Assembly (NCBI GenBank): GCA_965232465.1 | Contig: OZ246977.1 | Location: 1,348,649 to 1,412,648 of the forward strand | Reading direction: 5' to 3' | DNA from: Alphaproteobacteria bacterium | Lineage (GTDB): Bacteria; Pseudomonadota; Alphaproteobacteria; JAQWUY01 | DNA: 64,000 bases | Shown here: piece by piece, positions 8,424 through 62,093 of the stretch | How positions within the stretch are numbered: position 1 is the first letter of the stretch | Layout: every line of letters begins with the position of its first letter | The notes under the pieces: generated by a model | The model's input: the letters and a program-made list of their open reading frames with translations, nothing else | Databases searched by the model: none | What the model was told of the DNA's origin: nothing | Program-made: the position numbers and the translations under genes

Positions 8424-8801
8424 TTACTCGTTTGTCATATTACGCAATTTTTGTAATCTTGCCAATATATTTTCCACATCTTTTACCAATGTATGTGTTG
8501 TTTTTGTCATATCCTTGGATATATCCAAATTACCTTGTCGAAACGCTTTTATTCCATGTATCTTAATTAACCTTAACACCCCTTGTGTAGTGTATCCTTC
8601 GTTTTTTAGATAATGGTGAATGCGTTGTAAATAAGCAATATCATCGCTTGTATATAAGCGATTATGTCCATCAATTTTCTTCGGATTTAAATATGGAAAT
8701 TTTTTTTCCCAGAACCTAAGCGTGTGGATTCCCACACCAACAATATTTGATACATCCCTTATGCCTTTATATACAGGTTCAGTCATAAGGATAATATACA
8801 C
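8424..8801 (-). CDS. MerR-family transcriptional regulator
   Basis: MerR HTH segment (IRDVSNIVGVGIHTLRFWEKKF). Its position after ihfA is the usual alphaproteobacterial arrangement. Confidence 0.7.
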   Translation of the reverse strand: MYIILMTEPVYKGIRDVSNIVGVGIHTLRFWEKKFPYLNPKKIDGHNRLYTSDDIAYLQRIHHYLKNEGYTTQGVLRLIKIHGIKAFRQGNLDISKDMTKTTHTLVKDVENILARLQKLRNMTNE

Positions 8802-18879: not shown

Positions 18880-19338
18880 ATGTTAATAAAAAAATTTACT
18901 ATTTTAGCCATTGCTGCATTCACTTTATCTGGATGCATTTTCAGTTCGATTACCGAAAATAATATTGAAGCCCATGGATATGTACCCAATATTGATCAAA
19001 TTCAGTCTATGCGTACAGAACAACCCACTAAGCAGCAGGTACAATCTGTACTTGGAAAACCTTTTGTGGTCGACATATATGATAATAATTATTGGTATTA
19101 TCTGTTTTACAGAACCAAACAATATGGATTTTCCGCCAAAAAAATTATGGATTTTAAACTAGTGGAAATATCATTCAACGAAGAACAGGTACAATCTGTT
19201 ACCGAATATAATCAATCCATATTACAAGATATTGACTATAATACATCACAAAGTGAAACAGGTGGTAAAACATTGGGTATTATTGAACAGGTTGTCGGCA
19301 ATATTGGTAAAGTCCGCACCCAACAAAAACAACGATAA
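18880..19338 (+). CDS. bamE: Outer-membrane lipoprotein, BamE/SmpA-like
   Basis: Lipobox LSGC after a signal peptide. Conserved stretch VQSVLGKPFVVDIYDNNYWYY resembles BamE. Confidence 0.6.
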   Translation: MLIKKFTILAIAAFTLSGCIFSSITENNIEAHGYVPNIDQIQSMRTEQPTKQQVQSVLGKPFVVDIYDNNYWYYLFYRTKQYGFSAKKIMDFKLVEISFNEEQVQSVTEYNQSILQDIDYNTSQSETGGKTLGIIEQVVGNIGKVRTQQKQR

Positions 19339-35820: not shown

Positions 35821-36276
35821 TTACCCCTGACTTGGTTTCTTAATTTTTAAACCAGATTTAACAAATCCTTCCCGATGCCCTTTAAACAATTTTTCGTACA
35901 AGTCAGGTTGCCATATCTGAAAATGCCAACCACTGCCAACAAACACCGCTTTATCCGAAATACCTGCAAACTGTGCCAATTCTTCGGGTAATACAAACCG
36001 CCCTGTCATGTCATAACTTATCAAACGGGCATTTGCCATAATGTAATTTAAAATATGTTCGTCTTCGGAAAACATTGGGGCATTTTCCGCCATACTGTTA
36101 ACAATAAGATCCATTAAATCCTCGCTTCCTGCCTCTAAATAATCAGTTCTGGGCGATGGAAAGGCACAAAAATCTGTTGCAGAAGTCTTTTCCAAAACAT
36201 CACGAAATGCTGAAGGCAAAGAAACTCTACCTTTTGTATCAACTTTATTCGTATATGTACCAACAAAATATTTCAC
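35821..36276 (-). CDS. mraZ: Transcriptional regulator MraZ
   Basis: 151 aa; N-terminal KVDTKGRVSLPSAFR. First gene of the dcw cluster. Confidence 0.9.
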   Translation of the reverse strand: MKYFVGTYTNKVDTKGRVSLPSAFRDVLEKTSATDFCAFPSPRTDYLEAGSEDLMDLIVNSMAENAPMFSEDEHILNYIMANARLISYDMTGRFVLPEELAQFAGISDKAVFVGSGWHFQIWQPDLYEKLFKGHREGFVKSGLKIKKPSQG

Positions 36277-36563
36277 TTAAATACACCTTTAAAAACGATA
36301 CCCTTATAAAATAATAATCATAGTATAAAATGGAAAAGTATGGTTGTCAATGGTTTTTTGTAGTATTTTATGGTAAAACATGGATATTATACACAAATAC
36401 TATGCTACACCCCTTGTTTTTAAAAGATTTCAGAGTATATAAGACAAAAAAATAATTCTTTTTTTATTTCATTAAAACAACATGATACATAAAATATCTT
36501 GCACATCCCCCTCCCTCCCATAAATTACAATCTATGGTGTTATATTATTATGGTTTTTAATAC

Positions 36564-36593
36564 TTGAAAAAAAAAAAAAATCCTCTGTATACT
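36564..36593 (+). promoter_or_regulatory. Putative sigma-70-type promoter of the adhesin gene with an A14 homopolymer in the spacer
   Basis: TTGAAA (36564-36569), an 18-bp spacer made of 11 A's plus tcctctg, then TATACT (36588-36593). The A-run spans 36567-36580. Confidence 0.4.
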
Positions 36594-36662
36594 TATATTG
36601 TGGTGCCTGTTTGGGCGGGTGCCGAATTAAACTGTAATATTAAGATATTGAGGATGAAACAC

Positions 36663-39600
36663 ATGAAAAAATCTTTATGGGCAACGGCTAGTGTTATTGT
36701 GCTGGCATATACAACACCTGTATTCACCGATGACACGGACAAAGTGGTCAATGCCACGGGGAATATGTTTATGGATAGCATAAACAGAACAGGGTTTTTT
36801 GAATGGATAAGCGGCGGGGTCGGCTATACAGATAAAACCCTAAATTGGGATATTACCGCTTTTAGCAACCTGTCGGAAACAAAAGACACGGTTACATATT
36901 TGCAAACTTCTTATAATCGTCAAAAGTCAGTGAATCGATTAAACTTGGGGTTGGGGTATCGGAAGCGTATTGATACAACTGCTACCCCATTAATTGTTGG
37001 GGTCAATGCGTTTTTTGATAGCAAGGACGGGACAAAGAATATACTTGCTTTTAAGGCATCGGACAATTTCCAACGGTTTAGTGTGGGGGCGGAACTGAAA
37101 ACCGCACGGTTTGACATGGCGGCAAACCTATATCGTCGCATTGGCAATACCATTATCGACGATAAGAAAGTATTACAAGGCTGGGATATCACCGCTAAGG
37201 GCAATATCCCCAATTATGAACAGGTGTCTGTGGGGGTGGGGACCTATAGATTCGATGGGGTTGAGGATACAGTTGTTAGGGGCAATAAATTGATTGCCGA
37301 ATTTACCCCCAATGCGGTGGTAACAGTGCGGGGCACATATGACAAACCCAATGGCGAATCGGCACAGACCGATATATCGGTCGATTTTAAATTGGCATTC
37401 GACAAAAGTATACAAGACCAATTAAAATCCGCCCCTGTATCCGGTACAGATGCCGTATGGCACAAACGCTATGACAAGGTCGAACGGCACTATGATATTA
37501 AAACAGCGGAGGCACAGTCCACCCCCACATTAGGCACCGCTATCAGCAGTGCAGATTTGGCAACAAATAACATCAGTTCTGGCGATGGGACAACAGAACA
37601 ATCTGCATACGCCTTACAAAACAGCCAAAACTATGAGATACTAAACTTTGCTGGCACAATCGATAGTACTGATACTATTGAGGTCACTGTTGCAAAAGTG
37701 AGTGGCGATGGGGTGAAAGGCACGGACTTTCAGTTATACGCAAGCGATGGGACAACTGTTATTGCATTAGCGGATGTAACCGCAGATAGCAAGTTCGAAG
37801 ATAAAGCGGGGGGCAGAGAAGCCACCTTACAATTTACTTTTAGTGCGGATGGATTTAAAGACCGGGTGGTATTCGTTAAAACCAACAGCACTTTCACCGG
37901 TACTTTAACAATGGCAGATCTTGTTCTCCCCTATGCGTCTGGGACTGTAACGGTTAGCACCGCCGATATATTGGGTAAATTAACTGTATCCGGCAGCCAA
38001 ACACAAAAATCCGATTGGACAATTAAGAGCCTAACAGACACAGATAGTCATGCGAATCTTACGGTGAATGGCAAGACTCTGACTGTATCCGGGACAATCG
38101 GGTCCCCTACCACTGTAACCGCTGTATTCGAACATCCTGAGTATGCGGATCAGACCAAAACCTTCGAACTGTCCACAGGTGCCGGTACATTGGGGGGAAC
38201 GCCTACGGGGTTATCGGGTAAATGGGGCAAAACCTTTGCTGTGGATTATAAACTAAAAACTTCTGATACGGTGGGGGATGTAACAGTATCGTTTGATACA
38301 GGTGCCGATTTCAGCTTTAAGATTTTACCCCGTACTGATGGCAGTAAGGGAGGTAAGACCGCCACCACCGCAGGTATTATTGACACATCAAAAACAGCGA
38401 TTAACGCCAGTACTGGGGCAATTAATGGGGCAGCACTGACCAAATCGGGAACCTTGTTAGTGGAAATAGTCCGTGCCGCCAAAGGCGGATTGCCAGAGCT
38501 AACAGTATATGAAAATATTACGGTGAATAAACAAGTACTGGGTACAGATGTAACCACTATCCCGACCATATCGTTAAACAGTGGCGACAATAAGTGGAAA
38601 ACAGGGAATAGCAAATTTGACCTAAAATATACCAACCTGCCCGGCGGTCTGGCGGCGAATGCGTTTTCGTGGGCGGTTGCCAAAAAAACAGGGGCGGCAC
38701 CCAGTGGTACGGTCCGAATCGATAATGATGGTAAAATCAGTGGAGCAACCTCCGCTGGTACAGTGGTTATCACCTTAACCGCCAAAGGGGATAAATACAG
38801 TGGTAGTTTAACCTTAGCGGACTTTGCCATTGCCAAGCAAACAACGACAGATACGCTAACTATGGCGGATCTTGTCATATCCTATTCAGATGGGGATGGA
38901 AATAAAGTGGTAAGCACCGCAGAGATACTGGGGCAATTGTCCGTATCCGGGGGGCAAACACAAAAATCCCAATGGACACTGGTAAGCGTTGCCGACACGG
39001 ATAACAATGGCGATCTTGCTGTAACGGGTGGTGGCAAAACCCTAACCATATCCGATGAGATTAAAACCAAAACAACGGTTACCGCCACATTGTCGCATCC
39101 TGCGTATGAAAATAAGACGGCGACATTTGAATTGTCGACGGAGCCATCGAAGATAAGTACAACGGCACCCAGTGGGTCAGGTAAGTGGGGTAAATCGTAT
39201 ACTACGAATTATAATTTAAGACGTACGGTGGGGAGTGTAACATTTACTAATGCAGATTACACCTTCTCTATTGTGCCAACGGGCGATGATGGCAGTGGTA
39301 AGACACCCACCACCTCAGGTATTGTTGCCAGTGGGCAAAATGCTATAAGTAACCCCAGAACCGGGGCGATTGATGCCAGCAAATTAACCAAATCGGGTAC
39401 CTTATTGATAAAAATTGTCCGTGCGGCAAAAGGTGCTGGTGCCGCCCGAGTAGATGCGGTAACTGAATACCAAAACTTTACGGTGAGCAAACAGGACAGC
39501 ACAGACCACACCGGCTTTACTGTGTCCGCTGGGGCTATTGCATGGGCAACGGCAAGTACAGCGGTTACATATACCCTAACGAATGGTCCTGCGGGTATTG

Positions 39601-41924
39601 GCACCGCCACATACGCCTTGACAGCATCGGGGACAACGGCGGGTACGACCACAGGAGCTAGTGCTATCACCGTAGCGTCGAGCGATGGTAAGATTGGCAA
39701 AACCACTAAGAGTGGGGTGGTAAAAGTCAAGGTTACCTATGCCGCCAACGACAAATATGAAACGATGACCCGGGATGTGGATGTAACCATCAATAAGCAA
39801 GCGGGCACAGGGGCATTAACTATGGGGAACCTTGTGATACCGTATGGGGGGTCTGGGGATACAAAAGTAAGCACCGCCACCATAACAGGGAAATTGGGTG
39901 TACCCAGTGCCGGTGGTTTAGGGGCAAAATCGGATTGGACCTTAAAAAGCCTAGCGGATACGGATAGTAATTCGAATCTTACTGAAACGGATAGTGGCAA
40001 GACTTTGACCATATCCGGAGCAATCACCACCAGTACAACGGTTACCGCCACCTTCGAAAGTGATAAATACACGGATAAGTCCGCCACCTTTGAACTATCG
40101 ACTGGTGCCGGGGCAATGAGCACCGGCGATACCCGGACGGGACTATCCGGTAAATGGGGTATAGGGTTTAGCACAGCGGCGGATTATAAATTAAAACTGT
40201 CTGATAGTGTGGGCGATACGAGCGTAACCTTTACAAAAGGTGCCACCTCAACGCCGGGCGATTATACCTTCTCTATCGTTACGGGGAATGTGCCAAGTGA
40301 TGCACCGTCGGGGGCAAAAGCGACCACCACCAGTATCCTTGACACATCGAAAACGGCGATTAACGCCAACACTGGGGCTATTAATGCGGCGGCACTGGTC
40401 AAATCGGGCGACCTGTTGGTAAAAATCGTCCGCAAAGCCAAAAGCGGATTGCCCGCATTAACAGATTATGAAAATATTACCGTAACCAAACAGGATAGCA
40501 GCGACCACACCGGATTTACTGTATCGGCTGGGGCGATTACATGGAACGCCAATAGCCAAACGGTTTCGTATACAGAAAATGCCAGCAAACCTGCGGGTAT
40601 TGGCACCGCCACATATGCCTTAATAGATACAGGTACAACCGCCGGTACTGTAGCGGGCGGTAAAGGCACTATCGAAGTAACTTTGAGCAATGGTAAAATT
40701 GCAAAAACTGTCCGTAGTGGGGTGGTAAAAGTTAGGATTACCTATGCAGCCAACGATAAATACGCACAAATGACCCGAGATGTGGATGTACCCATCAATA
40801 AACAAACGGCAGCAGGGACGCTTAGTATGGCAAATCTTGTTGTACCCTATACATCCGGCAATAAAACAGTAAGCACCGCCGATATACTGGGGCAAATGAC
40901 TGCTCCAACAGGAACACAAAAAGCCGATTGGACCCTAAAAAGCCTAGCAGATACAGATAGTAATGGAAACCTTGCCATTGATGTGGGTGGAAAGAGTATA
41001 ACCATATCGGGGACAATACCCGCAGGGACAACAGTTACCGCTGTATTTGAAAGTGTCAAATATAATGATAAAACCGGTATAACCTTTGAACTATCCACAA
41101 GCAAAGGGACAATGAGTTCTGGCACCCGTACGGGATTATCGGGTAAATGGGGTACAGGCTTTACTAGTTCTACGAATGTGGATTATAAGTTAAAACTTTC
41201 TGATACAGTTGGGGATACAACAGTAACCTTTACAAAAGGTACAACAACGAATGCCGGCGATTACACCTTTACTATTTTACCCACCAGTGCTGGCAGTAAA
41301 GGGGGTAAAGACGCTACCACCTCAGGTATCGCATTAACCGGGGCAATTAACGCTAATACAGGGGCTATTGATGGGACAAAACTGACAAAATCAGGGAAAT
41401 TGTTAGTAAAAATTGTCCGTAAAGCCAAAGGGGGATTATCCGAAATCACCGATTATGAAAATATTATTGTGACGAAACAAGTACTAACACCAGCGGTTGC
41501 TTCTTCTGTAAAATCAGTCCAAGCTCCTGGAGCACTTCATACCATGACGCAAGCGGGTACGGCAAGTGATCCCTTTGCAACAGCATCACGGCAACTATAT
41601 CCGATCAGCAAATTAATATCTGTACCCAGTGGATTAGGCACACCAACTGTTACAGTAACTTGGACTGAATCGGGCAATTTGCAAACACAAGGATTAGGTG
41701 TTAGTGTCATTAACGACAGACTAGGAGCCCCAGATTTTAATATAATGAACAGCAATAAAGGGACAACAATTCCTAACGCATTACAAAGAAATATTTTTGA
41801 TTTTTTCAATAGGGACGCAACAAATACTGTACAACTTATCTTTACCTTTACCAACCCTGATACAGATAAGTACGATCTAACACAATCGGTTATTAATGTA
41901 TATATAAAAGGAAATGCCGGATAA
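36663..41924 (+). CDS. Giant surface protein, putative inverse autotransporter (intimin/invasin-type beta-barrel plus bacterial Ig-like repeats)
   Basis: Signal peptide MKKSLWATASVIVLAYTTPVFT. The N-terminal ~250 aa align by eye with the intimin beta-barrel. About 1400 aa of Big_2-like Ig modules follow in four ~1-kb tandem units, then a unique ~150-aa C-terminus. ATG 36663 has a GAGGA ribosome-binding site 10 nt upstream; ATG 36654 is an alternative. The track start at 36564 is a TTG running through the poly(A) and is rejected. Confidence 0.65.
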   Translation: MKKSLWATASVIVLAYTTPVFTDDTDKVVNATGNMFMDSINRTGFFEWISGGVGYTDKTLNWDITAFSNLSETKDTVTYLQTSYNRQKSVNRLNLGLGYRKRIDTTATPLIVGVNAFFDSKDGTKNILAFKASDNFQRFSVGAELKTARFDMAANLYRRIGNTIIDDKKVLQGWDITAKGNIPNYEQVSVGVGTYRFDGVEDTVVRGNKLIAEFTPNAVVTVRGTYDKPNGESAQTDISVDFKLAFDKSIQDQLKSAPVSGTDAVWHKRYDKVERHYDIKTAEAQSTPTLGTAISSADLATNNISSGDGTTEQSAYALQNSQNYEILNFAGTIDSTDTIEVTVAKVSGDGVKGTDFQLYASDGTTVIALADVTADSKFEDKAGGREATLQFTFSADGFKDRVVFVKTNSTFTGTLTMADLVLPYASGTVTVSTADILGKLTVSGSQTQKSDWTIKSLTDTDSHANLTVNGKTLTVSGTIGSPTTVTAVFEHPEYADQTKTFELSTGAGTLGGTPTGLSGKWGKTFAVDYKLKTSDTVGDVTVSFDTGADFSFKILPRTDGSKGGKTATTAGIIDTSKTAINASTGAINGAALTKSGTLLVEIVRAAKGGLPELTVYENITVNKQVLGTDVTTIPTISLNSGDNKWKTGNSKFDLKYTNLPGGLAANAFSWAVAKKTGAAPSGTVRIDNDGKISGATSAGTVVITLTAKGDKYSGSLTLADFAIAKQTTTDTLTMADLVISYSDGDGNKVVSTAEILGQLSVSGGQTQKSQWTLVSVADTDNNGDLAVTGGGKTLTISDEIKTKTTVTATLSHPAYENKTATFELSTEPSKISTTAPSGSGKWGKSYTTNYNLRRTVGSVTFTNADYTFSIVPTGDDGSGKTPTTSGIVASGQNAISNPRTGAIDASKLTKSGTLLIKIVRAAKGAGAARVDAVTEYQNFTVSKQDSTDHTGFTVSAGAIAWATASTAVTYTLTNGPAGIGTATYALTASGTTAGTTTGASAITVASSDGKIGKTTKSGVVKVKVTYAANDKYETMTRDVDVTINKQAGTGALTMGNLVIPYGGSGDTKVSTATITGKLGVPSAGGLGAKSDWTLKSLADTDSNSNLTETDSGKTLTISGAITTSTTVTATFESDKYTDKSATFELSTGAGAMSTGDTRTGLSGKWGIGFSTAADYKLKLSDSVGDTSVTFTKGATSTPGDYTFSIVTGNVPSDAPSGAKATTTSILDTSKTAINANTGAINAAALVKSGDLLVKIVRKAKSGLPALTDYENITVTKQDSSDHTGFTVSAGAITWNANSQTVSYTENASKPAGIGTATYALIDTGTTAGTVAGGKGTIEVTLSNGKIAKTVRSGVVKVRITYAANDKYAQMTRDVDVPINKQTAAGTLSMANLVVPYTSGNKTVSTADILGQMTAPTGTQKADWTLKSLADTDSNGNLAIDVGGKSITISGTIPAGTTVTAVFESVKYNDKTGITFELSTSKGTMSSGTRTGLSGKWGTGFTSSTNVDYKLKLSDTVGDTTVTFTKGTTTNAGDYTFTILPTSAGSKGGKDATTSGIALTGAINANTGAIDGTKLTKSGKLLVKIVRKAKGGLSEITDYENIIVTKQVLTPAVASSVKSVQAPGALHTMTQAGTASDPFATASRQLYPISKLISVPSGLGTPTVTVTWTESGNLQTQGLGVSVINDRLGAPDFNIMNSNKGTTIPNALQRNIFDFFNRDATNTVQLIFTFTNPDTDKYDLTQSVINVYIKGNAG
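37899..41480 (+). repeat. Four diverged ~0.95-1.0-kb tandem coding repeats inside the adhesin gene
   Basis: Unit starts near 37899, 38851, 39808 and 40811; each begins T/ALTMADLV-type and ends ENITV(T/N)KQ. Units 2 and 3 carry an extra ~100-aa Ig-like sub-module. Confidence 0.8.
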
Positions 41925-42000: not shown

Positions 42001-42271
42001 TTGATTCAATATATAGTCAATTCGGCATAAAATGATTCACCATAATTATACTGCACATTTTATTTTGTTGGTTATATGGTGAATCTAAGGGGCTAACGCC
42101 CCAGCTTCTCTGTACATTCTTGCGTTTAATGTGGATTTACCCATGCTTTGCATGACAAAAACCCACACATGTTCACCCCACTTTGCACCCCGATCGGACA
42201 CCACAATGCCACTATGGGGCAGGCGGTTGCAACCGCATTTTGTCAATCAAATTATATTTGATTGACTATAT
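42001..42271. mobile_element. MITE-like non-coding repeat, copy A (271 bp), with 11-bp terminal inverted repeats ATATAGTCAAT
   Basis: Left end atatagtcaat (42001-42011) and right end attgactatat (42261-42271). Internal 25-bp perfect palindrome gtcaatcaaattatatttgattgac (42242-42266). The ~80-bp left module is repeated at 50155-50240. TA dinucleotides flank both ends. Confidence 0.5.
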
Positions 42272-42427
42272 GATATGCTTTACAATCAGGATTGATTTCT
42301 GATTGTGTAGTATGTGATCTCCTGCTTCTTTTCGTCATAAGTAAGTCTCCTTAGTGTTAAATGTGGTATATGCTGAATATAACACATAGGGTAATAAATA
42401 ACACTTACACAAATTTCATGACAGACT

Positions 42428-45058
42428 CTACAATTTTTCAAGGACTAATTTAGTTTTTTTCACAATTTGCTGGGCATCTGCCAAAGATTTTTTATCTTTT
42501 TCGATGATATGGGTGGGGGCTTGGGATAAGTATCCTGCGTTGCTTAATTTTCCCGAAAACTTTTTCACATCGCCTTGGGCTTTTTTCAATACTTTGCTTA
42601 GCCGTGTGATTTCTGCATCTGTATCAATGGCACCATCGAAAGGGATAAACACTGTGGCACCATCTTGTAAGAATTGCCCCGCCCCTTGAATCGGTGTATC
42701 AATCTGTATAATCGGGTTGGTTTTTGCCAGTTTTTGTATCAAATCTGCATGCGTTTGCAATGCTTGATGCCGATCAGTGTGTACACCCATAACTTTTACA
42801 TCAATAGTATTTTGGGCGGGAATGTTCATTTCTATGCGGATTGAGCGTAATTTTGTAATAAAGCGTTTGATATAATCAATTTCATCTTGGGCAACCTTAT
42901 CTGTATTATCCGCTGATTGTTGTAACCACCCTGCCCCGATAAGAGCTGTATCTTTGGTACCAAACTCTGTCCATAATTCTTCGGTAATAAAGGGAATCAT
43001 TGGGTGCAGAAGTTTTAAAATATGTTGATACACCCAGCCCATTGTATGGCGGGTTTCGATAATAATATTATCGTTTTCTGATCGATATAAAGACTTGGAA
43101 AATTCTACATACCAATCACAAAATGTCCCGCGGACAAAATGATATAATACATTGGAAGCTTCCGAAAAACGATAAGATTCGATGGCTTTTTCGAAATTGT
43201 CTTTTGCTTGTATTAAATCAGCAATAATCCAGCGGTTAATAGGGCTATTTGGACTGGCTATATCAAAGTCCTTGGGGGCATACGCTTTGTTTATTTCACA
43301 AAACTTGCCCGCATTCCAAATTTTGGTTAAGAATCCTTTTGAACCTTCGACCCGTGATGTACTGAATTTAATGTCTTTTCCTGGTGTAGAAAGGCTAGAT
43401 AATGTAAACCGTAAAGCATCCGTTCCATATTGTTTAATCAAGATTAGAGGATCGATAACATTGCCTTTTGACTTGGACATTTTTGCCCCTTTTTCATCCA
43501 ATACTAAGGCATGTACGACCACCGTATGAAAGGGTTCAACCCCCATAAAGTGAATTCCCATCATCATCATACGGGCAACCCAGAAAAACAAAATATCAAA
43601 TCCTGTTACCAAAATATCATTTTGATAATATCTGTCTAATTCAGGGGTATTTTCTGGCCAGCCCAATGTGGAAAACGGCCACAAGGCGGATGAAAACCAA
43701 GTGTCCAAAACATCACTGTCTCTTTTCAATACCACATCATCACCAAACTGTACTTTTGCCTGTGTATACGCATCTTGTTTTGTATCCGCCACAAATACAG
43801 TGCCATCTGGTGCATACCAAGCGGGAATCTGATGTCCCCACCACAATTGACGGGAAATACACCATGGTTGGATATTATCCATCCAGTCAAAATATGTTTT
43901 TGTCCAATTTTCGGGAATAATTTTTGTACATCCTGATTTAACCGCTTCAATGGCGGGTTGTGCCAATTTTTCTGCATCCATATACCACTGATCGGTCAAA
44001 AAGGGTTCAATCGGCACCCCCCCTCTGTCCCCATAAGGTACTGTGTGGGTATATTCTTCCACATGATTTAAATATCCAAGTACTTCCATATCTTCAACCA
44101 CTTTTTGACGACAGATAAACCTTTCGAGTCCTCTGTATTTATTTGGTACATTATCATTCATATACCCATTTTTGGTTAAGATATTGATACTTTCCAAGTC
44201 TTGGCGTTTGCCCACTTCAAAATCATTAAAATCATGGGCGGGTGTTATCTTTACCGCCCCTGTGCCTTGTTGGGGATCGGCATATGCATCGGCAACAATG
44301 GGAATATACTTACCCGTAAGCGGTTGAATACACATCTTACCCACCAAATCTGTATACCGTTCGTCATCAGGATGCACAGCAACACCCGTATCACCAAGCA
44401 TGGTTTCCGGGCGAGTGGTACCCACCGTAATAAAGGTGTTTTCAAGCCCTACAATAGGATAGTTAAAAAACCACATATGTCCATTGACTTCTGTTTGAAT
44501 CACTTCTAAGTCAGAAATTGCTGTTTCCAGTTTTACATCCCAATTCACCAGCCGTTTGTCACGGTATATAAGCCCTTGGTTATACAATTCGACAAAAACT
44601 TTGACAACCGCCTTACTCAGCCCTTCATCCATGGTAAAGCGTTCATGATTCCAATCGGTGGAATTGCCCAATCTGCGTTGTTGTTGGACAATCTGTCCGC
44701 CAGATTGGCGTTTCCATTCCCACACTTTTTCCAAGAACCTATCCCGTCCCAAATCATGGCGTTTAAGTCCTTGTTTATTGAGCATCCTCTCGACCACCAT
44801 TTGTGTGGCAATACCCGCATGGTCTGTCCCTGGTACCCACAAAGTGTCAAAACCTTGCATGCGCTTATACCTTATAATAATATCTTGCATAGTATTATTT
44901 AACGCATGACCCATATGTAAATTGCCTGTTACATTAGGGGGGGGAATGACCACAGAAAATGGTGTCCCCACACCAGAAGGGGTAAAATATCCCCCTTGTT
45001 CCCATTTGTCATATATATCTTGTTCCCGATTCGCATGCAAAAAGGTTTTGTCTAACAT
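42428..45058 (-). CDS. valS: Valine--tRNA ligase
   Basis: 876-aa class I aaRS with HMGHALNNTMQD (HIGH) and KMSKSKGN (KMSKS) motifs and a C-terminal coiled coil. Confidence 0.95.
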   Translation of the reverse strand: MLDKTFLHANREQDIYDKWEQGGYFTPSGVGTPFSVVIPPPNVTGNLHMGHALNNTMQDIIIRYKRMQGFDTLWVPGTDHAGIATQMVVERMLNKQGLKRHDLGRDRFLEKVWEWKRQSGGQIVQQQRRLGNSTDWNHERFTMDEGLSKAVVKVFVELYNQGLIYRDKRLVNWDVKLETAISDLEVIQTEVNGHMWFFNYPIVGLENTFITVGTTRPETMLGDTGVAVHPDDERYTDLVGKMCIQPLTGKYIPIVADAYADPQQGTGAVKITPAHDFNDFEVGKRQDLESINILTKNGYMNDNVPNKYRGLERFICRQKVVEDMEVLGYLNHVEEYTHTVPYGDRGGVPIEPFLTDQWYMDAEKLAQPAIEAVKSGCTKIIPENWTKTYFDWMDNIQPWCISRQLWWGHQIPAWYAPDGTVFVADTKQDAYTQAKVQFGDDVVLKRDSDVLDTWFSSALWPFSTLGWPENTPELDRYYQNDILVTGFDILFFWVARMMMMGIHFMGVEPFHTVVVHALVLDEKGAKMSKSKGNVIDPLILIKQYGTDALRFTLSSLSTPGKDIKFSTSRVEGSKGFLTKIWNAGKFCEINKAYAPKDFDIASPNSPINRWIIADLIQAKDNFEKAIESYRFSEASNVLYHFVRGTFCDWYVEFSKSLYRSENDNIIIETRHTMGWVYQHILKLLHPMIPFITEELWTEFGTKDTALIGAGWLQQSADNTDKVAQDEIDYIKRFITKLRSIRIEMNIPAQNTIDVKVMGVHTDRHQALQTHADLIQKLAKTNPIIQIDTPIQGAGQFLQDGATVFIPFDGAIDTDAEITRLSKVLKKAQGDVKKFSGKLSNAGYLSQAPTHIIEKDKKSLADAQQIVKKTKLVLEKL

Positions 45059-45147: not shown

Positions 45148-46416
45148 TTATAAATCGCTAAATTTATCAACCGTCATGTTACCTGTTATGGTTAATATAT
45201 CGACAATTGCCAAAGCGTATTGTTTTAATCCTGTCACATATTGTTGGGTGGCATTGATTTCGGCTTCTATTTTTTCCAACAATGCATCAGAGGTGGATTG
45301 TCCTGCGTTATATTTCACCTGTTCCGTCTCAACCGCCACTTTGTTTGCTTGTACAGTGATTAAATTGGCATCCAACAGATTTTTTTGTGTCACATACACC
45401 TGCCAAAATTGCCGTAAGGTATTACGGACTGTGTTTTGTTCTACTTTTAGGCGAATGGCATTATTGCCCAGATTCAAGGTGGTTTTTTCAGTCTTTAGGC
45501 GGTTACTTTTGTTCACATCAAATGTTATGTTGTATTGAAGGTTAATTGTATTGTTTAATTCCCCCCCATCGATGATATTTTTACGGCTTGATGCGGATAA
45601 AGTAACCGTACCTTTGCGTTCCGCATGTTCGGATGCAAGGGTATTTTTCAGTTTATCCCTATTATTAATAAGGATTTTTAAATCCGGATTGTGAACAAAT
45701 GCCTGTTCGATGGCCATATCAAGGCTAGCAGGCAATGATACTTTCGACAAATCAGGAATCGGCAAGTTTTCAGGAGCTTTAAACCCAACAATCCGTTCGA
45801 ATTCTTGTTCGATATTACTTAATTGCACTTCTAAGCCAATACGGGTGGCTTTAATGCGGGCAAATTTTGCCTGTGAATTCAATTTTACAGATTCGGACAA
45901 AGTGCCATTTTGAAAATTGATATTATCGCGTATCATCGCAGATTCAGCGGATTTTTCGCTCTGTAGTTGCGTTTCATATTGCCGTCTTAATTCGATAAGC
46001 GAAAAATAAGTATTTATAATTGTTTTAATGACCGAAGTTTCTGTTTTATAATATGTCAAGTCCGCATTTTTTTCGTCGATGAGTGCATTTTCATAAGCTA
46101 ATTCTTCACGTCCAAATGTGTATGCCGTCCAGCGCCCCGATAAGGTTGCAGAAGATGCATTGCCATCACGATTTACAGATTCCAATCCACCTGTAAATCG
46201 GTTGCTGGCATCCACAGATAGCGACAATGTGGGTTTAAGTTCCGCCACCAATCGTTCTGTATCCAGCTTAGTCGTGTCCCGTACCGCCCGTGCCAAATTA
46301 ATTTCATCCAATGTATTTAATGCCAAATTTAAGGCATTATAAAATGTAACCGGCTGTGCATAAGACACCCCCAAAAAGGTAAATATACCCATGCTGATAA
46401 GTTTCGTTTTTAACAT
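45148..46416 (-). CDS. TolC-family outer membrane efflux channel
   Basis: Signal peptide followed by two tandem TolC-like helical/barrel repeats. Confidence 0.75.
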   Translation of the reverse strand: MLKTKLISMGIFTFLGVSYAQPVTFYNALNLALNTLDEINLARAVRDTTKLDTERLVAELKPTLSLSVDASNRFTGGLESVNRDGNASSATLSGRWTAYTFGREELAYENALIDEKNADLTYYKTETSVIKTIINTYFSLIELRRQYETQLQSEKSAESAMIRDNINFQNGTLSESVKLNSQAKFARIKATRIGLEVQLSNIEQEFERIVGFKAPENLPIPDLSKVSLPASLDMAIEQAFVHNPDLKILINNRDKLKNTLASEHAERKGTVTLSASSRKNIIDGGELNNTINLQYNITFDVNKSNRLKTEKTTLNLGNNAIRLKVEQNTVRNTLRQFWQVYVTQKNLLDANLITVQANKVAVETEQVKYNAGQSTSDALLEKIEAEINATQQYVTGLKQYALAIVDILTITGNMTVDKFSDL

Positions 46417-46560: not shown

Positions 46561-46634
46561 GGCGCGGTGGCGGAGAGGCTACGCAGAGGACTGCAAATCC
46601 TCGTACACCGGTTCGAATCCGGTCCGCGCCTCCA
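46561..46634 (+). tRNA. tRNA-Cys (anticodon GCA)
   Basis: GGCGCGG acceptor, anticodon loop GGACTGCAAATCC, T-arm GGTTCGAATCC, 3' CCA. Confidence 0.9.
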
Positions 46635-46659: not shown

Positions 46660-48294
46660 TTACAAAGTACCTTGTTTAATATGCGTAGGCAGTGATAGTA
46701 TCGTATTGTGTATTTCGTATATGTTTGAAACAGTTTTAAGGTGCATGTTGCTGGAATGGGCGGTGACTGTGTCGCCGACTGATAGGCGTTTTAGGTGGCG
46801 GTGTAGGCTTTTTTGATAATTGCCCTGCATAATCTGTTGTTGTTTGGTAATTTCGTCCGTTTGGGTATCACCCCCACGATTGCCCATCAACACATCAAAC
46901 ATCAACAGCGTACCCTGTCGCAGTTGTTCATACATGACCTTAATTTCTTGCCAGCCTTTTTCTGAAAATAATATCTTATTGGTGTACTTTTCCTTTGCCA
47001 AATCCATAAATACCCCTGATACCAACTCAGATGCCTTGCTTAATTCCACCGCATACGATATGTATTCCCGTATCTTCCTTGCCTCATCCTTGGTGAGTGT
47101 CCCTTTGGGAATGTCCGTATAAAACTGTTTTAAATCCTCAACCCGTTGCTGAATATTGGTATGGGATTTTTGCATACATTCGGTGATATTCGTGTTGTAA
47201 TTACGGTACGACTCTTCCACCAAACTGACGCTGTTTGCCAAGGTGTCTAGGATAAATAAAATTTCCTTGCTCACATACCCATGAATCGTCACACTGTCCA
47301 CACCCTCCCGTTGGGCTATGGATAAAATACCATTGGTATCTGTCTGTGTATCAATGGGATTGTCATAGTGTTGTGCTATATTGATAATCTTGGGGATAAA
47401 TGGTATCCATACCATTAAGGCAAAGTTAAATACCATATGCGTATAAATAAGCGATTGCTCCTGCAACCCAAACAAATATGCCTGTACCGTATCGGGGGCA
47501 TATCGTACTATGCCGATTAACACAAGTACACACATAACCGCCATTACACCCCGTAGTATCATGATAAGTTTTGGGACTGTGCTTTCGTCTTTTTCCCCAC
47601 CCCGTGTCATCCAGTAGGCTATAAACGCACTGCCCAAGTTTGCCCCTAGTATAAACGCTATTCCTGGAACAGCGGATAAGCTACCCGTATGTACGAGGGT
47701 TACCAAGGTTAAAATAGACGCCACACTGGAATGCATGGCAAAAGTAAGCACCGCCCCCACGATAAATGCCAACAATAAATCAGATTCAAAATAATAGACA
47801 ATATCCACAAACAACGGCATACTTGCCACCGGGGCAATAGCGGATTTTAACATTTGTAGGGACAGAATAATCAACCCCATACCAAACAAGATATGTCCGA
47901 TGTGTTTACGGTGGGCACTGTCAGACTTCAAATGCATCCACCCGCCAATGGCTAGCAACACAGGAATGAACCCAGATATATCAAAGGTAAGCACCCGAAG
48001 CACAATAGCCGAGCCCACATCCGCCCCTATGGCAACGGCAAGAGCAATGGCAAGCGGAATAATCCCTGTTGCCACCAACCCAGAGGTCAACACGATCACC
48101 GCCGTAGCCCCCTGCATGGCGATGGCAAGCACCGCCCCCAATGCAACTGCCCGTATATTACCATACTTGGTCATAAGTACATTGGCAATCAAACCACCAT
48201 ACGCTTTCTTAACAGACGACCGAACCATGTTAATCGATACCAACATCAACATCACACCCGCCATCAACGAAAATATAAATTCTAATAATATCAT
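46660..48294 (-). CDS. Na+/phosphate cotransporter family protein (NptA/YjbB-like, with PhoU-like C-terminal domain)
   Basis: Two Na/Pi-cotransporter repeats (N-terminal MILLEFIFSLMAGVMLMLVSINMVRSSVKKAYGG) and a cytoplasmic PhoU-like C-terminal half. Confidence 0.75.
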   Translation of the reverse strand: MILLEFIFSLMAGVMLMLVSINMVRSSVKKAYGGLIANVLMTKYGNIRAVALGAVLAIAMQGATAVIVLTSGLVATGIIPLAIALAVAIGADVGSAIVLRVLTFDISGFIPVLLAIGGWMHLKSDSAHRKHIGHILFGMGLIILSLQMLKSAIAPVASMPLFVDIVYYFESDLLLAFIVGAVLTFAMHSSVASILTLVTLVHTGSLSAVPGIAFILGANLGSAFIAYWMTRGGEKDESTVPKLIMILRGVMAVMCVLVLIGIVRYAPDTVQAYLFGLQEQSLIYTHMVFNFALMVWIPFIPKIINIAQHYDNPIDTQTDTNGILSIAQREGVDSVTIHGYVSKEILFILDTLANSVSLVEESYRNYNTNITECMQKSHTNIQQRVEDLKQFYTDIPKGTLTKDEARKIREYISYAVELSKASELVSGVFMDLAKEKYTNKILFSEKGWQEIKVMYEQLRQGTLLMFDVLMGNRGGDTQTDEITKQQQIMQGNYQKSLHRHLKRLSVGDTVTAHSSNMHLKTVSNIYEIHNTILSLPTHIKQGTL

Positions 48295-50154: not shown

Positions 50155-50288
50155 ACTATAGTTGATTTGGTATAAAATGATTCGCCATATTTATTATACT
50201 ATACATTTTATTTTGTTGGTAAGTTTAAGGGGCTAACGCCTCTCGCTCAGTATTATAAGTCAATCAAAGTATATTTAATTGACTATAT
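50155..50288. mobile_element. MITE-like repeat, copy B (134 bp), same family as 42001-42271
   Basis: Left actatagttgat and right attgactatat terminal inverted repeats. The shared module ggtataaaatgattcgcc...ttaaggggctaacgcc is followed by the near-palindrome gtcaatcaaagtatatttaattgac (50259-50283). The element overlaps the ugpQ stop codon and ends 6 bp from the lacI-family start. Confidence 0.5.
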
Positions 50289-52205: not shown

Positions 52206-52472
52206 ATATATATCCTCCTTATATTATATCTTTAATCCACGGGAAATAATCCGATGATTAAGCATGATAATAATCAGCGGAATAACCGTTATCATAAGCC
52301 CTGCGGTCATAATCAATGTATAATCTGTAAGCCCTTCATAAGGGTCTTCTCTTAGGGAATTTAACCCAACCAATGCTGGCTGTATTTTTGGATTGTTGGA
52401 GGCAATTAACGGTCAAAAGTACTGATTCCATCCCCCCGTAAATAAAATTAAAAATAATCCTAGATAGTGTAG

Positions 52473-52847
52473 TCACGAGATTTTTGTCCATAATGCGATG
52501 CATCTGATTTGTACAGCGGCGAGAAATGAAGTGGTGTTTTTAGCGTATCTTGTTGCAATACCACGCCATCGTTTTAGGTGTAGAAACGCATTTTCCACTA
52601 AGCACCGCCAATGATACAGGTGTTCATCATACTCCCTTTGTTCTTTGCGATTCTTTCTTGGGGGAATAACAGGCTCTATACCTTGTTGTTTTGCTAGGTG
52701 TATGATATGCTCACTATCATATCCCTTATCTGCCAACAAATACTCTGCACTGATGCCTTCAATCAATCTGCCTGCTTGTGTGCAATCAGCCGTGGTACCG
52801 TTCGTAATAAGTATTCTGACCGGCATACCATGCGCATCCACGGCCAA
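52473..52847 (-). CDS. IS5-family transposase, C-terminal DDE ORF (orfB), reached by a -1 shift near AAAAGGGGG
   Basis: The frame upstream of the annotated start reads ...GLNTKIHLAVDAHGMPVRILITNGTTAD, the conserved DDE_Tnp_1 core. It overlaps orfA by 85 nt. Confidence 0.75.
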   Translation of the reverse strand: MAVDAHGMPVRILITNGTTADCTQAGRLIEGISAEYLLADKGYDSEHIIHLAKQQGIEPVIPPRKNRKEQREYDEHLYHWRCLVENAFLHLKRWRGIATRYAKNTTSFLAAVQIRCIALWTKIS

Positions 52848-53236
52848 ATGTATCTTCGTGTTGAGCCCCCTTTTGTGCGGCTCATATCTTGATTACCGCC
52901 TAGTGCACCAGATGCATGAGGATGCACCTTACAATGACTAGCGTCTATTATTAACCATTCATAATCCGGATCTGTAACTAAAATTTCCAACAACTTTTCC
53001 CATATCCCCTTATCACGCCAGCGGATAAAACGACGGTGCGTGTTACTCCAATCCCCTAAATCAGGCGGTAAGTCACGCCAAGGGGCACCTGTGCGTATAA
53101 TCCAAAATACCGCATTGATAAATAAACGGTTGTCTTTCGCTATACCACCCCATGTGCCTTTACGACCCGGTAAGTGTGGCTCTAATAATTCCCATGTTTT
53201 ATCACAAATATCATGGCGTCTGTGTGCTAATGTCAT
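52763..53236 (-). CDS. IS5-family transposase, N-terminal ORF (orfA)
   Basis: MTLAHRRHDICDKTWELLEPHLPGRKGTWGGIAKDNRLFINAVFWIIRTGAPWRDLP is the canonical IS427-group N-terminus. Confidence 0.8.
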   Translation of the reverse strand: MTLAHRRHDICDKTWELLEPHLPGRKGTWGGIAKDNRLFINAVFWIIRTGAPWRDLPPDLGDWSNTHRRFIRWRDKGIWEKLLEILVTDPDYEWLIIDASHCKVHPHASGALGGNQDMSRTKGGSTRRYIWPWMRMVCRSEYLLRTVPRLIAHKQAD

Positions 53237-53987
53237 CTCAATGTCCTTTATAATAGTGTTAATATCAAAAATACTATAACATAGTTCTTACCTCATGACT
53301 ACACTATTTAGTATAGTAGGCTTAGATTGAGGAATTAAAATATCCACTAAGAAGCGAAAGGGACCTGCTCCATCCATTTGTGCAGCCTTTACCATAGAGG
53401 GTGGAATCGTACGGAAGTACTGTACAAATACCAAAGTACCACCGGCTTCAATCATTAACGGCAAACTCATCCCCCCATAGGAGTTTAAAATATTAAACCG
53501 CATATCCAATGAATAGCCAAATATAAATGTCCACAAACCCCCTAAGTTTGCAATGGTATTTATGGGTAAAAAGATATTGGATGCCACTTGATACATAACA
53601 ATGGTTAGGGTATCCCCTGGTACCAAAATAATAACTATTACACACCCATACATCAGTTTGCGGATAAAATTGCCAAAAAACACGATGGTATAGGCAGCCA
53701 ATATGGCAAATAATATGCCCCCGCCACCAATCAATACACCTAAAATGGCACTGTTTAAAATTTGTCGTGGAATAAGTGTTTCTGTGCTAACCGTATATAG
53801 GTTTTGCCATAAATGTGTACCAAGTACCAACTGTAATTCCCCACCATTTTGTACAAAATCTGCATATGAAGTACTTGCAGTGGTTAAAATAATATACAAT
53901 GGCGTAAGTATATATATGCACCCCAATATCAAAACTGCATACGCAGTAATGTTTATGGAGCGGGTGTTTTCTATCATATTCATATCA

Positions 53988-54939
53988 TTATCTTTCATAT
54001 TTTATATGCTTACCAAGCAACAGAAATTGTAACCCTGCGATAGTCAATCCGATGATTAAAATAATAATGGTTTGTGCCGCCGCCCCCGATAAATCGAGTC
54101 CCACAAACGCATCCTGATATAATTTGTATATAATCAATGTGGTTTCCCCACGGGGATTACCTTCGGTCATAATGTTAATTAACGCAAATGATGATGTTAA
54201 ACCTTGGTTAATTTCCAATAACATGGTGATAAATAATTGTGGCGTAATAAAGGGCAACTGCATATCCCATAACCGTCGCCATGCCCCCGCACCATCCATA
54301 GCCGCCCACCGGAGTTACACTACCAATTGCAGCAGATAACCGTCGCCATGCCCCCGCACCATCCATAGCCGCCGCCTTATGCAAAGTATTTGGAATAGCC
54401 TGTAAACCGGCGAGTATAACCACAAAATTAAAGGGAATATTGCCCCATATACTGGCAATATAAATCATAATCCATGCGTGTAAAGTGTTGTCCCGTGGAC
54501 TCCATAGTTCGGGGTACTTATCGGCAAATCCCGCTAAAAACCCCATTTGTGGGTCAAGTATAAATACAAACACCACACCAGCACTAGCCGCTGCAAACGC
54601 CTTTGGCCAAATAAATACACTGCCAATATGACGGGTGCCACGCACACCTCTGTCCACTGCTAAAGCCAATATTAAAGATATGGAAATTGCCAAAAACGAA
54701 GAGATCATCATGTATATGATTGTCCGTATAACAACTGTGATAAATTCCCCATCGCTCAGCAATTCTATGAAATTATCAAACCCCACATATTCTGTACTGC
54801 CCCCAAATGGGGATTCCAAATGAAACGCCCAATAAAACGATACCAATATGGGTGTAAAGAAAAATAACATTACTAATATAAGGCAGGGGGAGGCAAATAG
54901 CATAGCATGTAAAGTATTATGAAAGTATCCTTGTCGCAT
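53988..54939 (-). pseudogene. ugpA: ugpA-like ABC permease pseudogene (frameshifted by a 67-bp insertion/duplication)
   Basis: The 36-bp sequence aaccgtcgccatgcccccgcaccatccatagccgcc occurs at 54271-54306 and again at 54338-54373, separated by 31 bp. MDGAGAWRRL is therefore encoded twice and the frame breaks. Both flanking frames are MalF/UgpA-like. Confidence 0.75.
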
Positions 54940-56782: not shown

Positions 56783-56814
56783 ATATTGTCAATGATAAAT
56801 ATCATTGACAATAT
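56783..56814. repeat. 32-bp perfect palindrome ATATTGTCAATGATA-aa-TATCATTGACAATAT, two terminal-repeat-like arms of the MITE family placed back to back
   Basis: 15-bp arms around a 2-nt centre. The arm matches the MITE terminal repeat ATATAGTCAAT at 10 of 11 positions. Confidence 0.5.
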
Positions 56815-56829
56815 TTTGTGTTTTGGCAC

Positions 56830-56920
56830 TTGTGGGTTGTATCCTAATGCACTGTGTGAGTGGATGTGGTTGTATTCGTATTGCCACTGTCCTATGATTA
56901 CTTGTGCTTCTGATAGTCTC
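56830..56920 (-). pseudogene. Remnant of the C-terminus of an rve-integrase-type (IS3/IS481-like) transposase
   Basis: [32 protein letters not shown] matches the conserved C-terminal box (W..YNH.RPHSALGY.TP) of DDE-integrase transposases. No other transposase sequence lies nearby. Confidence 0.45.
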
Positions 56921-56923
56921 ATT

Positions 56924-57100
56924 TTGTCCGCCGGTATTATTGACCCAGCAAAAATCGTTCGCTGTGCCATTCAAGATGCCGCATCCATTGTTGGTTTGTT
57001 AATCACCACCGAAACCATGGTGGCTAATGAGCCTGTGGATCCTGCTGCAGCACCTGCTATGCCAACGGGTGGAACAGGCGGTATGCCAAGCATGATGTAA
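56924..57100 (+). pseudogene. groEL: groEL 3'-terminal fragment (last ~59 codons only)
   Basis: [58 protein letters not shown]-stop is the Cpn60 C-terminus, including the Gly/Met-rich tail. The upstream part of the gene is absent. Confidence 0.7.
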
Positions 57101-61287: not shown

Positions 61288-61495
61288 AAAGCTATAAACG
61301 CTTAAAACCAAAAAAAATCGAATGTAATCATTTTATACGAATTTAACTATAATTTTTTTTGGCTGTAATTTTTTTAAAAAAAGCCTTGCATGGCGATTGA
61401 ATGGGAAGTGAATTTTACTTTATCATTTATTGGATATGTAGTATATATTATATATTAGGTGTCATAGGCTATCAAATATATAAAAGAATGTGTTA

Positions 61496-62093
61496 TATGA
61501 AATTGGATATAAACCCACATTTTGAACAGGCTTTGCGGATCATGGAAAATACCTGTCAGCATCTGTTTATTACGGGCAAGGCGGGGACGGGGAAGTCTAC
61601 TTTGTTGGAATGTTTTTGTGCCAATACCCATAAACAAGTGGTGGTGTTAGCACCCATGGGCGTATCAGCACTGCATGTTAAGGGACAGACCATTCACAAG
61701 TTTTTTAACTTTTATATTGATGTGACCGTTGAACAAATTGAATATGGAGAAATCGTTTCAAGGAATCCCGAAATATATAAAAGTATTGATACCATCATTA
61801 TCGACGAAGTATCCATGGTGCGGGCGGATTTATTGGATTGTATCGATGCGTTTATGTCCGCATATGGTCCGCAACAAGACACACCTTTTGGCGGGGTGCA
61901 AATGGTGTTTATTGGCGACTTGTACCAACTGCCCCCGGTGGGCAAAGGGGAAAGACAGGTATTTCGGGACTATTATACATCACCCTATTTTTTCAGTGCG
62001 GATGTTATGAACGATATATCACTGGATATTATCGAACTGGAAAAGGTCTATCGACAAAAAGATGCGGACTTTATCAAAATAAACAGCAAATAA
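61496..62093 (+). pseudogene. Truncated Pif1/RecD-like DNA helicase (N-terminal ~200 aa only)
   Basis: Walker A FITGKAGTGKST, Walker B IIIDEVSM and the Pif1 signature KVYRQKD.DFI are followed directly by a stop. The C-terminal helicase domain is missing and recO follows. Confidence 0.6.

Follow-up and report, generated by a model that had tools for sequence, protein, structure and literature searches.

What occupies the non-coding interval that follows valS in contig OZ246977.1 of an alphaproteobacterium (assembly GCA_965232465.1)? The interval lies within the 64,000-nt stretch of DNA analysed here (positions 1,348,649 to 1,412,648 of the contig), referred to as the window, and a preliminary description had placed a 271-bp unit there, starting at 42001 and resembling a miniature inverted-repeat transposable element (MITE). 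The existence of a unit holds, but its true extent is 42011-42271, or 261 bp, which we call copy A. We consider it probable, with moderate confidence, that copy A is one member of a dispersed, non-autonomous, non-coding, MITE-like repeat family. This fit to a MITE follows from the build of the family, whose members are discrete, dispersed and non-coding, carry terminal inverted repeats and have a conservation that ends at TA on both sides.

Boundaries, modules and copies

Copy A lies between convergent genes and reads in the sense direction on the minus strand, as does valS upstream. Its terminal inverted repeat consists of ATATAGTCAAT at 42011-42021 and the exact reverse complement ATTGACTATAT at 42261-42271, so that the 11-bp repeats first proposed for this locus match at 11 of 11 positions. 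Such 11-mers are enriched in the window, where 10 sites match ATATAGTCAAT with at most one mismatch against 2.75 expected, a count that none of 100 shuffles reached. A site at 19206-19241 lies within coding sequence and was judged to be chance. The preliminary description had each end flanked by TA, which does not hold as worded: the 11-mer of A is preceded by AT, with GA after. TA flanks appear only when the element is written as TAGTCAAT...ATTGACTA, and the TA is therefore the outer part of the repeat itself. Among copies, homology ends exactly at TATAGT.../...ACTATA, with unrelated flanks in every copy; on either side of each copy, conservation runs out with a TA that is inseparable from the TATAGT end of the repeat. 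The terminal inverted repeats agree at 8 of 11 positions in a second copy, B, and imperfectly, with an indel, in a third, D (consensus TATAGTYRAT).

Alignment of copies A, B, D and E with two tandem arrays from a related genome gives a common plan of four modules, read on the strand of the upstream gene. The first is a terminus, (A/C)TATAGTCAAT, with a hairpin of 11-bp stem; the second is a core of 125-150 nt with three hairpin domains; the third is the hairpin GGGGCGUUAGCCCC; and the fourth is an AT-rich arm with an invariant TATAAT and the final letters ...ACTATA. Copies A and D contain all four modules, B contains only the first, third and fourth, and the arrays repeat the second and third, so that the number of cores per element is zero, one or several. 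Because B has both termini and the arm without a core, the outer shell is a unit of its own. The elements measure 133, 246 and 261 bp, well within the limit of about 500 bp customary for MITEs, differ from one another by 7-25%, and carry no open reading frames (ORFs) with Pfam domains. A small peptide gene in the arm (16-19 codons; MIHHNYTAHFILLVIW in A and MIRHIYYTIHFILLVSLRG in B, with an in-frame indel) was considered and rejected, as it is not conserved in E.

The positions of these parts in A are collected in Table 1. The 5' terminal module of A is common to B (93%), to D and to the head of one of the arrays. Its hairpin had been described as a perfect 25-bp palindrome, but the central TAT is not self-complementary. 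The hairpin-capable inner module of the same description was borne out, both in the GATTCACCATA/TATGGTGAATC arms and in GGGGCTAACGCCCC. Beyond its palindrome, the core of A comprises a variable capped hairpin and a long stem, GUGUGG...CCACAU, with a variable apical hairpin; it has a 15-nt insertion relative to D and is homologous to the 127-129-bp tandem units of the arrays as well as to D and E.

Table 1. Coordinates, in the window, of copy A, its modules, further family members and the adjoining insertion-sequence remnant.
Feature	Position	Strand	Remarks
Copy A	42011-42271	-	261 bp
5' terminal module of A	42237-42271	-	terminus (A)TATAGTCAAT and 11+3+11 hairpin (42242-42266)
GC-rich structured core of A	42103-42236	-	52% GC, against 28% in the arms; absent from B
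Core palindrome GCGGTTGCAACCGC	42223-42236	-	
GC hairpin	42089-42102	-	GGGGCTAACGCCCC; GGGGCGUUAGCCCC on the sense strand; shared by all copies, B included
AT-rich 3' arm of A	42011-42088	-	invariant TATAAT at 42045-42050; terminus ...ATTGACTATAT
Hairpin arms in the 3' arm of A	42034-42044, 42075-42085		GATTCACCATA and TATGGTGAATC, respectively
Copy B	50156-50288	-	133 bp; shell form without core
Fragment C	61323-61352	+	final ~30 nt of the 3' arm only, GTAATCATTTTATACGAATTTAACTATAA; 38 nt past the hydantoinase stop codon
IS256-family left-end remnant	42284-42426	-	143 bp; between the valS stop codon and A, 12 nt from A; not part of the family

Copy B is the relative that had been noticed near 50155-50288, and it shares the right end of A (ATTGACTATAT at 50278-50288); its left end is degenerate (CTATAGTTGAT). 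By BLAST, A and B are 77% identical over ~90 nt of the left arm (E=4e-14) and 93% identical over the terminal 30 nt, with unrelated flanks. A GDPD gene takes its final four codons and its stop codon from the 5' end of B, and the 3' end of B lies 6 nt from the ATG (50149) of a LacI-family gene. Fragment C matches B at 88% over 26 nt (BLAST within the window, E=0.003) and falls below significance for the nhmmer profile of the arm. Beyond the window, where the preliminary description had called for more copies to be sought, two flank ilvD in the same species and core arrays occur in a related genome. The two copies beside ilvD lie on a contig of the same species (L024): D at L024:10701-10947 (246 bp), downstream of ilvD, matches the whole of A at 88% identity (E=4e-79), and E, at ~8476-8712, ends 14 nt before the ilvD start codon. 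Copy A is also present, with 100% identity, on a metagenome contig of the same species (L011; 99.4% identical overall). This brings the sample to four full copies (A, B, D and E) and fragment C within ~96 kb of this species, which would correspond to roughly one copy per 20-25 kb, or some 100 per genome, if the sample is representative.

The arrays belong to a relative with a 2.97-Mb genome. At one locus (L016), a 129-bp core unit is repeated 3.9 times between smpB and rpoZ and is headed by a hairpin like the terminus of A and B; at another (L027), a 127-bp core unit is repeated about five times (5.2) right behind the terminator that closes a BCCT-transporter gene. The ~27 kb examined of a 2.58-Mb relative yielded no copy, and neither did more distant contigs that carry the LacI-family gene. 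Directly behind the remnant of an IS3-family transposase, at 56783-56814, lies a supposed reduced form, a 15+2+15 palindrome with arms that match the 11-mer at 10 of 11 positions. It is not recovered by the profile of the terminal hairpin of the family, and its membership is unsupported.

Pattern searches of wider collections returned little. The left-end pattern TATAGTNNANTNNGNATAAAATGATT, scanned against genome, metagenome and viral contig collections, gave AT-rich chance matches and one repeat in a metagenome-assembled genome (MAG) labelled 'Verrucomicrobia'; since the three matches of the window itself were not returned, these scans carry no information on copy number. Patterns from the core and from the MAG repeat found nothing relevant in viral contigs, and copy A and the IS3/palindrome region found no significant match in a plasmid collection. 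In the MAG, three contigs break inside a multi-copy repeat (L003:1-73, L004:4409-4474 and L005:1-70; PSRL01000196, PSRL01000074 and PSRL01000003) of which 73 nt are visible. Its terminus, TATAGTTAATTCAGTATAAAATGATTACAG, is identical to the left end of A at 23 of 26 positions and starts exactly at TATAGT. The likeness may be accidental, or the repeat may be a related element that has a full-length partner.

The surroundings of the copies were compared with those in related genomes. The host has a 2,630,883-bp replicon, its proteins are mostly singletons at 90% identity, and its valyl-tRNA synthetase (ValRS) is 71-79% identical to those of the relatives (79% for the 2.97-Mb genome) and 56-58% identical to those of Rhodospirillales-type alphaproteobacteria. 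In three related contigs (L016, L017 and L026), the next gene after valS, 0-13 nt away, is comF-like and precedes dprA, ilvD and tRNA-Ser, and in a fourth (L025) ilvD lies 39 nt after valS. As valS is directly followed by other genes in these relatives, 42011-42271 is not an ancestral spacer; the preliminary description had named ancestral intergenic DNA as the alternative to an insertion, and all four contigs are without such a spacer. In the window species, the valS-ilvD block is broken after valS (by an IS256-family remnant and A), before ilvD (by E) and after ilvD (by D), and the relatives have dprA-ilvD-tRNA-Ser where D and E sit. The LacI-family gene lies upstream of an ATP-binding cassette (ABC) operon in the relatives, whereas in the window it lies downstream and is preceded by B. 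The copies lie at synteny breaks, and A sits at a rearrangement junction beside the IS256-family remnant.

Structured core and competing explanations

Within the core, an invariant GUGGUG forms pairs with the 3' half of the invariant palindrome GCGGTTGCAACCGC, and a variable capped hairpin stands between the two. The stem of this first variable hairpin reads TGCCAC/GTGGCA, TGCGAC/GTCGCA or GGGC/GCCC, that of the second reads CATGC/GCATG, CGCAC/GTGCG, CGTGC/GCACG or TGCAC/GTGCA, and the hairpins are kept by compensatory changes. In the structure predicted by RNAalifold, double changes occur at 7 of 35 pairs, and pairing is found in 96.3% of cells, compared with 90.5% for shuffles; none of 500 shuffles attained the covariation score and slid controls drop to 42-56%, for an alignment of seven sequences that includes four from one array and from which the structure itself was derived. 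In five of five copies tested, conserved G-U pairs make the fold of the sense strand more stable than that of the antisense strand by 10-15 kcal/mol. All seven loci are co-oriented with the gene upstream (two-sided binomial P ~0.016), and none lies between divergent genes.

The arrays and the covarying core bear on what it is that spreads. REP/BIME and ERIC/IRU sequences are hairpin-forming intergenic repeats that are co-transcribed with flanking genes and biased in position and orientation, with arrays in the case of BIME and internal indels in the case of ERIC. REP elements are imperfect palindromes of 20-40 nt with a conserved 5' tetranucleotide, arranged in alternating arrays and accompanied by a RAYT gene. 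By analogy, the core with GCGGTTGCAACCGC could be the selfish or functional unit, spread as a hairpin by a Y1/RAYT enzyme or by slippage and recombination, while the TATAGT ends would be secondary or incidental. Amplification of this kind is the main rival to a MITE-like family because one array (L027) has no inverted ends, and we regard it as possible, though with a rather low probability. It would account for head-to-tail arrays of 127-129-bp units in the relative, one of them without terminal hairpin or arm, and for 3' or intergenic positions co-oriented with transcription, as in the BIMEs of Escherichia coli. It also gains from a 14-nt palindrome that is invariant across species while neighbouring stems co-vary, a pattern that suggests a protein-binding site. 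What it leaves unexplained is copy B, which has termini and arm without a core, and a conservation that ends at symmetrical TATAGT/ACTATA termini. The units are, moreover, ~4 times longer than REPs and run head to tail in one orientation rather than alternating; neither a Y1 transposase gene nor a RAYT gene appears in the gene tables of the loci examined.

The same folding evidence could instead point to functional structured RNAs, such as leaders, stabilisers of the 3' untranslated region (UTR) or small RNAs, that were selected and duplicated along with rearrangements and are not mobile. Compensatory changes, conserved G-U pairs, a more stable sense strand and the uniform orientation of the loci all agree with this explanation, as do the three loci with an end just ahead of the start codon of the next gene (the LacI-family gene for B, ilvD for E and rpoZ for the L016 array). 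We nevertheless consider it unlikely. No common regulatory logic is apparent among genes of such unrelated function as those beside the copies (valS, ilvD, a LacI-family regulator, rpoZ, a BCCT transporter and a hydantoinase). Nor is the core framed by a promoter or terminator of its own, the L027 array starting right after the terminator of another gene. The ~27 kb of the 2.58-Mb relative hold none of these sequences, and inverted termini and solo end fragments are transposon-like features. Known RNA families offer no counterpart either: none of 4227 Rfam families matches in the window at the gathering threshold, matches at the element are at chance level only (best E=0.096, on the neighbouring terminator), the L016 array has none at E<=1, and ARAGORN found nothing at the element.

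A promoter-like signal lies in the arm. The TATAAT hexamer is invariant in the arms of A, B, D and E while its surroundings vary, both in the alignment and in the nhmmer profile, and this suggests an outward-facing promoter in the arm, with weak -35 elements. In B, the promoter-like site TTACCA-18-TATAAT (50222->50193) agrees with a sigma-70 promoter at 10 of 12 positions and points towards the ATG of the LacI-family gene, 43 nt away. 

In a third alternative, the apparent element would be shared regulatory DNA, with operator palindromes of the form GTCAAT-N-ATTGAC recurring in promoter regions. TTGTCAAT-N(6-16)-ATTGAC does occur at two sites (three matches, counting both strands of 56786-56811) where 0.01 would be expected, an extra ATTTTGTCAAT half-site lies 30 nt outside A, and B stands upstream of a LacI-family regulator gene. 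We hold this to be very improbable all the same. Homology spans 130-260 bp, far past the length of an operator, and neither E nor the L027 array has the palindrome; A and D sit where two genes converge and a promoter would serve no purpose, and LacI-type operators are of a different form. Lastly, similarity by chance, or a local duplication of intergenic DNA that happened once, which might have been entertained on the grounds that the window holds only two full copies and that AT-rich DNA readily gives short inverted repeats, is refuted by the E-values (4e-14 for A and B, 4e-79 for A and D), the sharp shared boundaries and the occurrence of copies on separate contigs and in a second species.

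Possible mobilisation and likeness to known elements

If the family is MITE-like, its shell of terminal inverted repeats and TA would have been spread by a transposase acting in trans and inserting at TA, a mechanism also put forward for the Neisseria Correia element; members of the family would then begin as TA-TAGTCAAT and finish as ...ACTA-TA. The core would have been gained, lost or amplified by recombination or slippage, and the copies would by now be inactive and fossil-like, an appearance that stems from their divergence of 7-25% and from the identity of A in two strains. The copies are expected to be transcribed together with the upstream gene as a structured 3'-UTR or intercistronic RNA, and they may have served as recombination junctions, or may mark them. 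In B and E, the TATAAT of the arm may act as a promoter for genes (the LacI-family gene and ilvD) that rearrangement cut off from their own. Copy A itself probably does nothing beyond adding hairpins to the 3' end of valS.

The termini resemble those of the Correia element (CREE/nemis). Published Correia repeats begin TATAGTGGATTAAATTTAAAT... (PMC5039591; PMC9778887). When this 21-nt alpha repeat was scanned over 162 kb of lineage sequence on both strands (324,000 positions), the best matches were the 5' termini of the family, in register: D at 18 of 21 positions, the head of the L016 array at 17, and B and A at 16, a value reached by only two unrelated positions. Both kinds of element are small, non-coding and dispersed, with inverted termini that start TATAGT and share TATAGTnnATTAAATTTAA, and with TA at both boundaries, and each has a long form and a short one, distinguished by an internal block. 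They often stand directly 5' of genes, carry sigma-70-like hexamers near their ends and are associated with rearrangements (PMC2649163; PMC10969869). No cognate transposase is known for CREE (PMC2649163), and likewise none for the present family. In essence, the element resembles a Correia-type MITE in its workings without being a CREE: its repeat diverges after ~21 nt, its sizes and interior differ and its host is an alphaproteobacterium.

These differences can be stated closely. The CREE repeat has 26-28 nt at both ends and published searches allow at most 3 mismatches, whereas the best terminus of the family, that of D, diverges past about nt 21 and accumulates ~10 mismatches over 28-29 nt. 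CREE sizes are 104-108 and 153-157 bp, compared with 133, 246 and 261 bp here. The interior of the family is a multi-hairpin core able to form tandem arrays, from which the CREE interior differs. The family is strongly biased in orientation while CREE is nearly symmetrical, and a site for IHF was not recognised in the family. CREE has been reported only from Neisseria, in contrast to the alphaproteobacterial host of the family. A host in Neisseriaceae or Pasteurellaceae was considered and rejected, as no DNA uptake sequence (DUS) or uptake signal sequence (USS) motifs were seen and the ValRS homologues are alphaproteobacterial.

Other small repeats invite comparison. The preliminary description likened the unit to non-autonomous derivatives of Tc1/IS630-like transposons. 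MITEs of this derivation, such as RUP of Streptococcus pneumoniae and Nezha of cyanobacteria, are short and have inverted repeats; TA is their presumed target, and they presumably depend on a transposase supplied in trans. The family is alike in its short inverted-repeat build, although no IS630-family transposase was seen in the sequences examined. It is set apart from REP/BIME sequences by its units of 127-129 bp, placed head to tail, and by its defined TATAGT termini. QMITE1/2 of Coxiella burnetii (PMC5896051) and the Rickettsia palindromic elements occur in a similar setting of insertion-sequence (IS) remnants, pseudogenes and rearrangements. Promoter-like hexamers and altered gene ends, exemplified here by the GDPD gene at B, are further points of likeness. 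Rickettsia palindromic elements insert in frame inside genes, and in-frame insertion was not seen in the family. The sequences of the element itself found no match in the literature, and by its sequence the family appears to be a previously undescribed one of a well-known kind.

A number of observations weigh against a MITE-like family spread by transposition. In ~340 kb of related sequence no transposase came to light whose ends match; the ends of the IS5, IS1595, IS3 and IS256 elements seen there differ from those of the family. All comparable loci in the relatives are rearranged and no true empty site was found, so that TA duplication and insertion are inferred, and there is no presence/absence polymorphism, A being identical in the one other strain compared (L011). 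The earlier MITE-like label is upheld by dispersal, lack of coding capacity, inverted ends and TA limits, but not by a polymorphism or a matching IS. The modular build, the orientation bias, the adjoining IS256 remnant and the likeness to the Correia element did not figure in that description. Copy E is without a clear 5' terminus, and the L027 array is without terminal hairpin and arm, from which it follows that the core can exist and amplify without inverted repeats. The orientation bias and the strand asymmetry of G-U pairs suggest RNA-level selection, which a purely selfish DNA transposon does not need. In the promoter scan only B passes, the -35 elements of A, D and E matching at 3 of 6 positions, and the likeness to the Correia repeat covers ~20 nt only and was noticed post hoc.

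Individual candidates for a parent were also rejected. An IS5-family IS in the window shares only T[G/A]TAGTCA with the element at its ends, out of register, and for IS256 homology stops 12 nt before A. The window and the related loci inspected held no IS630-family gene or matching inverted repeat. The preliminary description had the window free of a parent transposase, which is correct in that none has matching ends; the window does, however, contain the IS5-family IS and remnants of IS3 and IS256.

The shared terminus TATAGTnnATTAAATTTAA raises a more speculative idea, that the family and the Neisseria Correia element descend from, or are recognised by, one TA-targeting transposase lineage. 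We think this doubtful on present evidence. If true, this alphaproteobacterial lineage, or the MAG with the 23/26 terminus, might still carry an autonomous partner, and this could reveal how Correia elements move, a question dating from 1986-88. Correia-type termini in an alphaproteobacterium would be the first hint of this type of end beyond Neisseria and would provide a motif for hunting the mobilising enzyme. The core, for its part, presents a clean case of a sequence that is single inside a transposon-like shell in one species and in tandem arrays in another; co-varying, sense-biased and array-forming, it may represent a new class of structured RNA. Because the family marks rearrangement junctions, alters the end of a gene (the GDPD stop codon) and may drive a relocated LacI-family regulator and ilvD, it is worth annotating and is not anonymous spacer. 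Its interest would rise if the terminus led to the missing transposase or the core proved to be a functional RNA.

A rearranged neighbourhood

The genome around copy A is rearranged and scarred by ISs. The IS256-family remnant beside A retains an inverted repeat, a Shine-Dalgarno sequence and the first 19 codons from an ATG at 42338, and is 82% identical to L015:3949-4099, where the ORF continues as the N-terminus of a mutator-type transposase. The truncated ORF (42252-42338, minus strand), with its good Shine-Dalgarno sequence, runs into A for 28 codons and stops in the terminal hairpin. On the other side of valS, a block of valS (42428-45058), a gene for a TolC-like OEP (45148-46416) and tRNA-Cys (46561-46634) is kept in all relatives, with both flanks rearranged in the window species. 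Next to it, a Na/Pi-cotransporter gene (46660-48294) has a 95% identical paralogue at L015:2308-3944, and the borders of homology coincide with the ends of the ORF; the paralogue stands directly after a GDPD gene and is followed by the IS256 remnant of that locus.

Further IS traces lie elsewhere in the window. The IS5-family IS is full length (~52459-53312, minus strand), with readable DUF4096 orfA and orfB, ends TAGTGTAGTCAYGAG and flanks CTAA/CTAG, and it sits inside the ABC-transporter operon, with neighbouring ORFs at 53288-53998, 53988-54299 and 54208-54939. The permease genes of this operon look broken compared with the 293- and 304-residue versions of the relatives. The closest plasmid-borne relatives of the IS come from the intracellular symbionts Bandiella, Cardinium and Simkania. 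Beyond it, a C-terminal remnant of an IS3-family transposase (56815-56935, minus strand; rve_3, E=2e-5) abuts and truncates a 3' fragment of groEL (~56925-57100, plus strand), which ends GGMPSMM*. Just downstream of fragment C, an ORF for a PIF1-like helicase (61401-62093, plus strand) is only 230 residues long and is probably a gene fragment.

On the far side of A lies a gene for an inverse autotransporter of 1.7 kaa (thousand amino acids). A 14-nt A/T homopolymer at 36567-36580, in the region 36276-36656, precedes its likely start (~36656) by ~80 nt and could be phase-variable. Upstream of 36511, L011 (8820-9040) has rimP-nusA in place of mraZ, a rearrangement at the level of strains. Within the gene, self-matches in the comparison of L011 with the window reveal internal repeats of ~1 kb at 38000-41500 with 64-70% identity, which are presumably tandem Ig-like domains.

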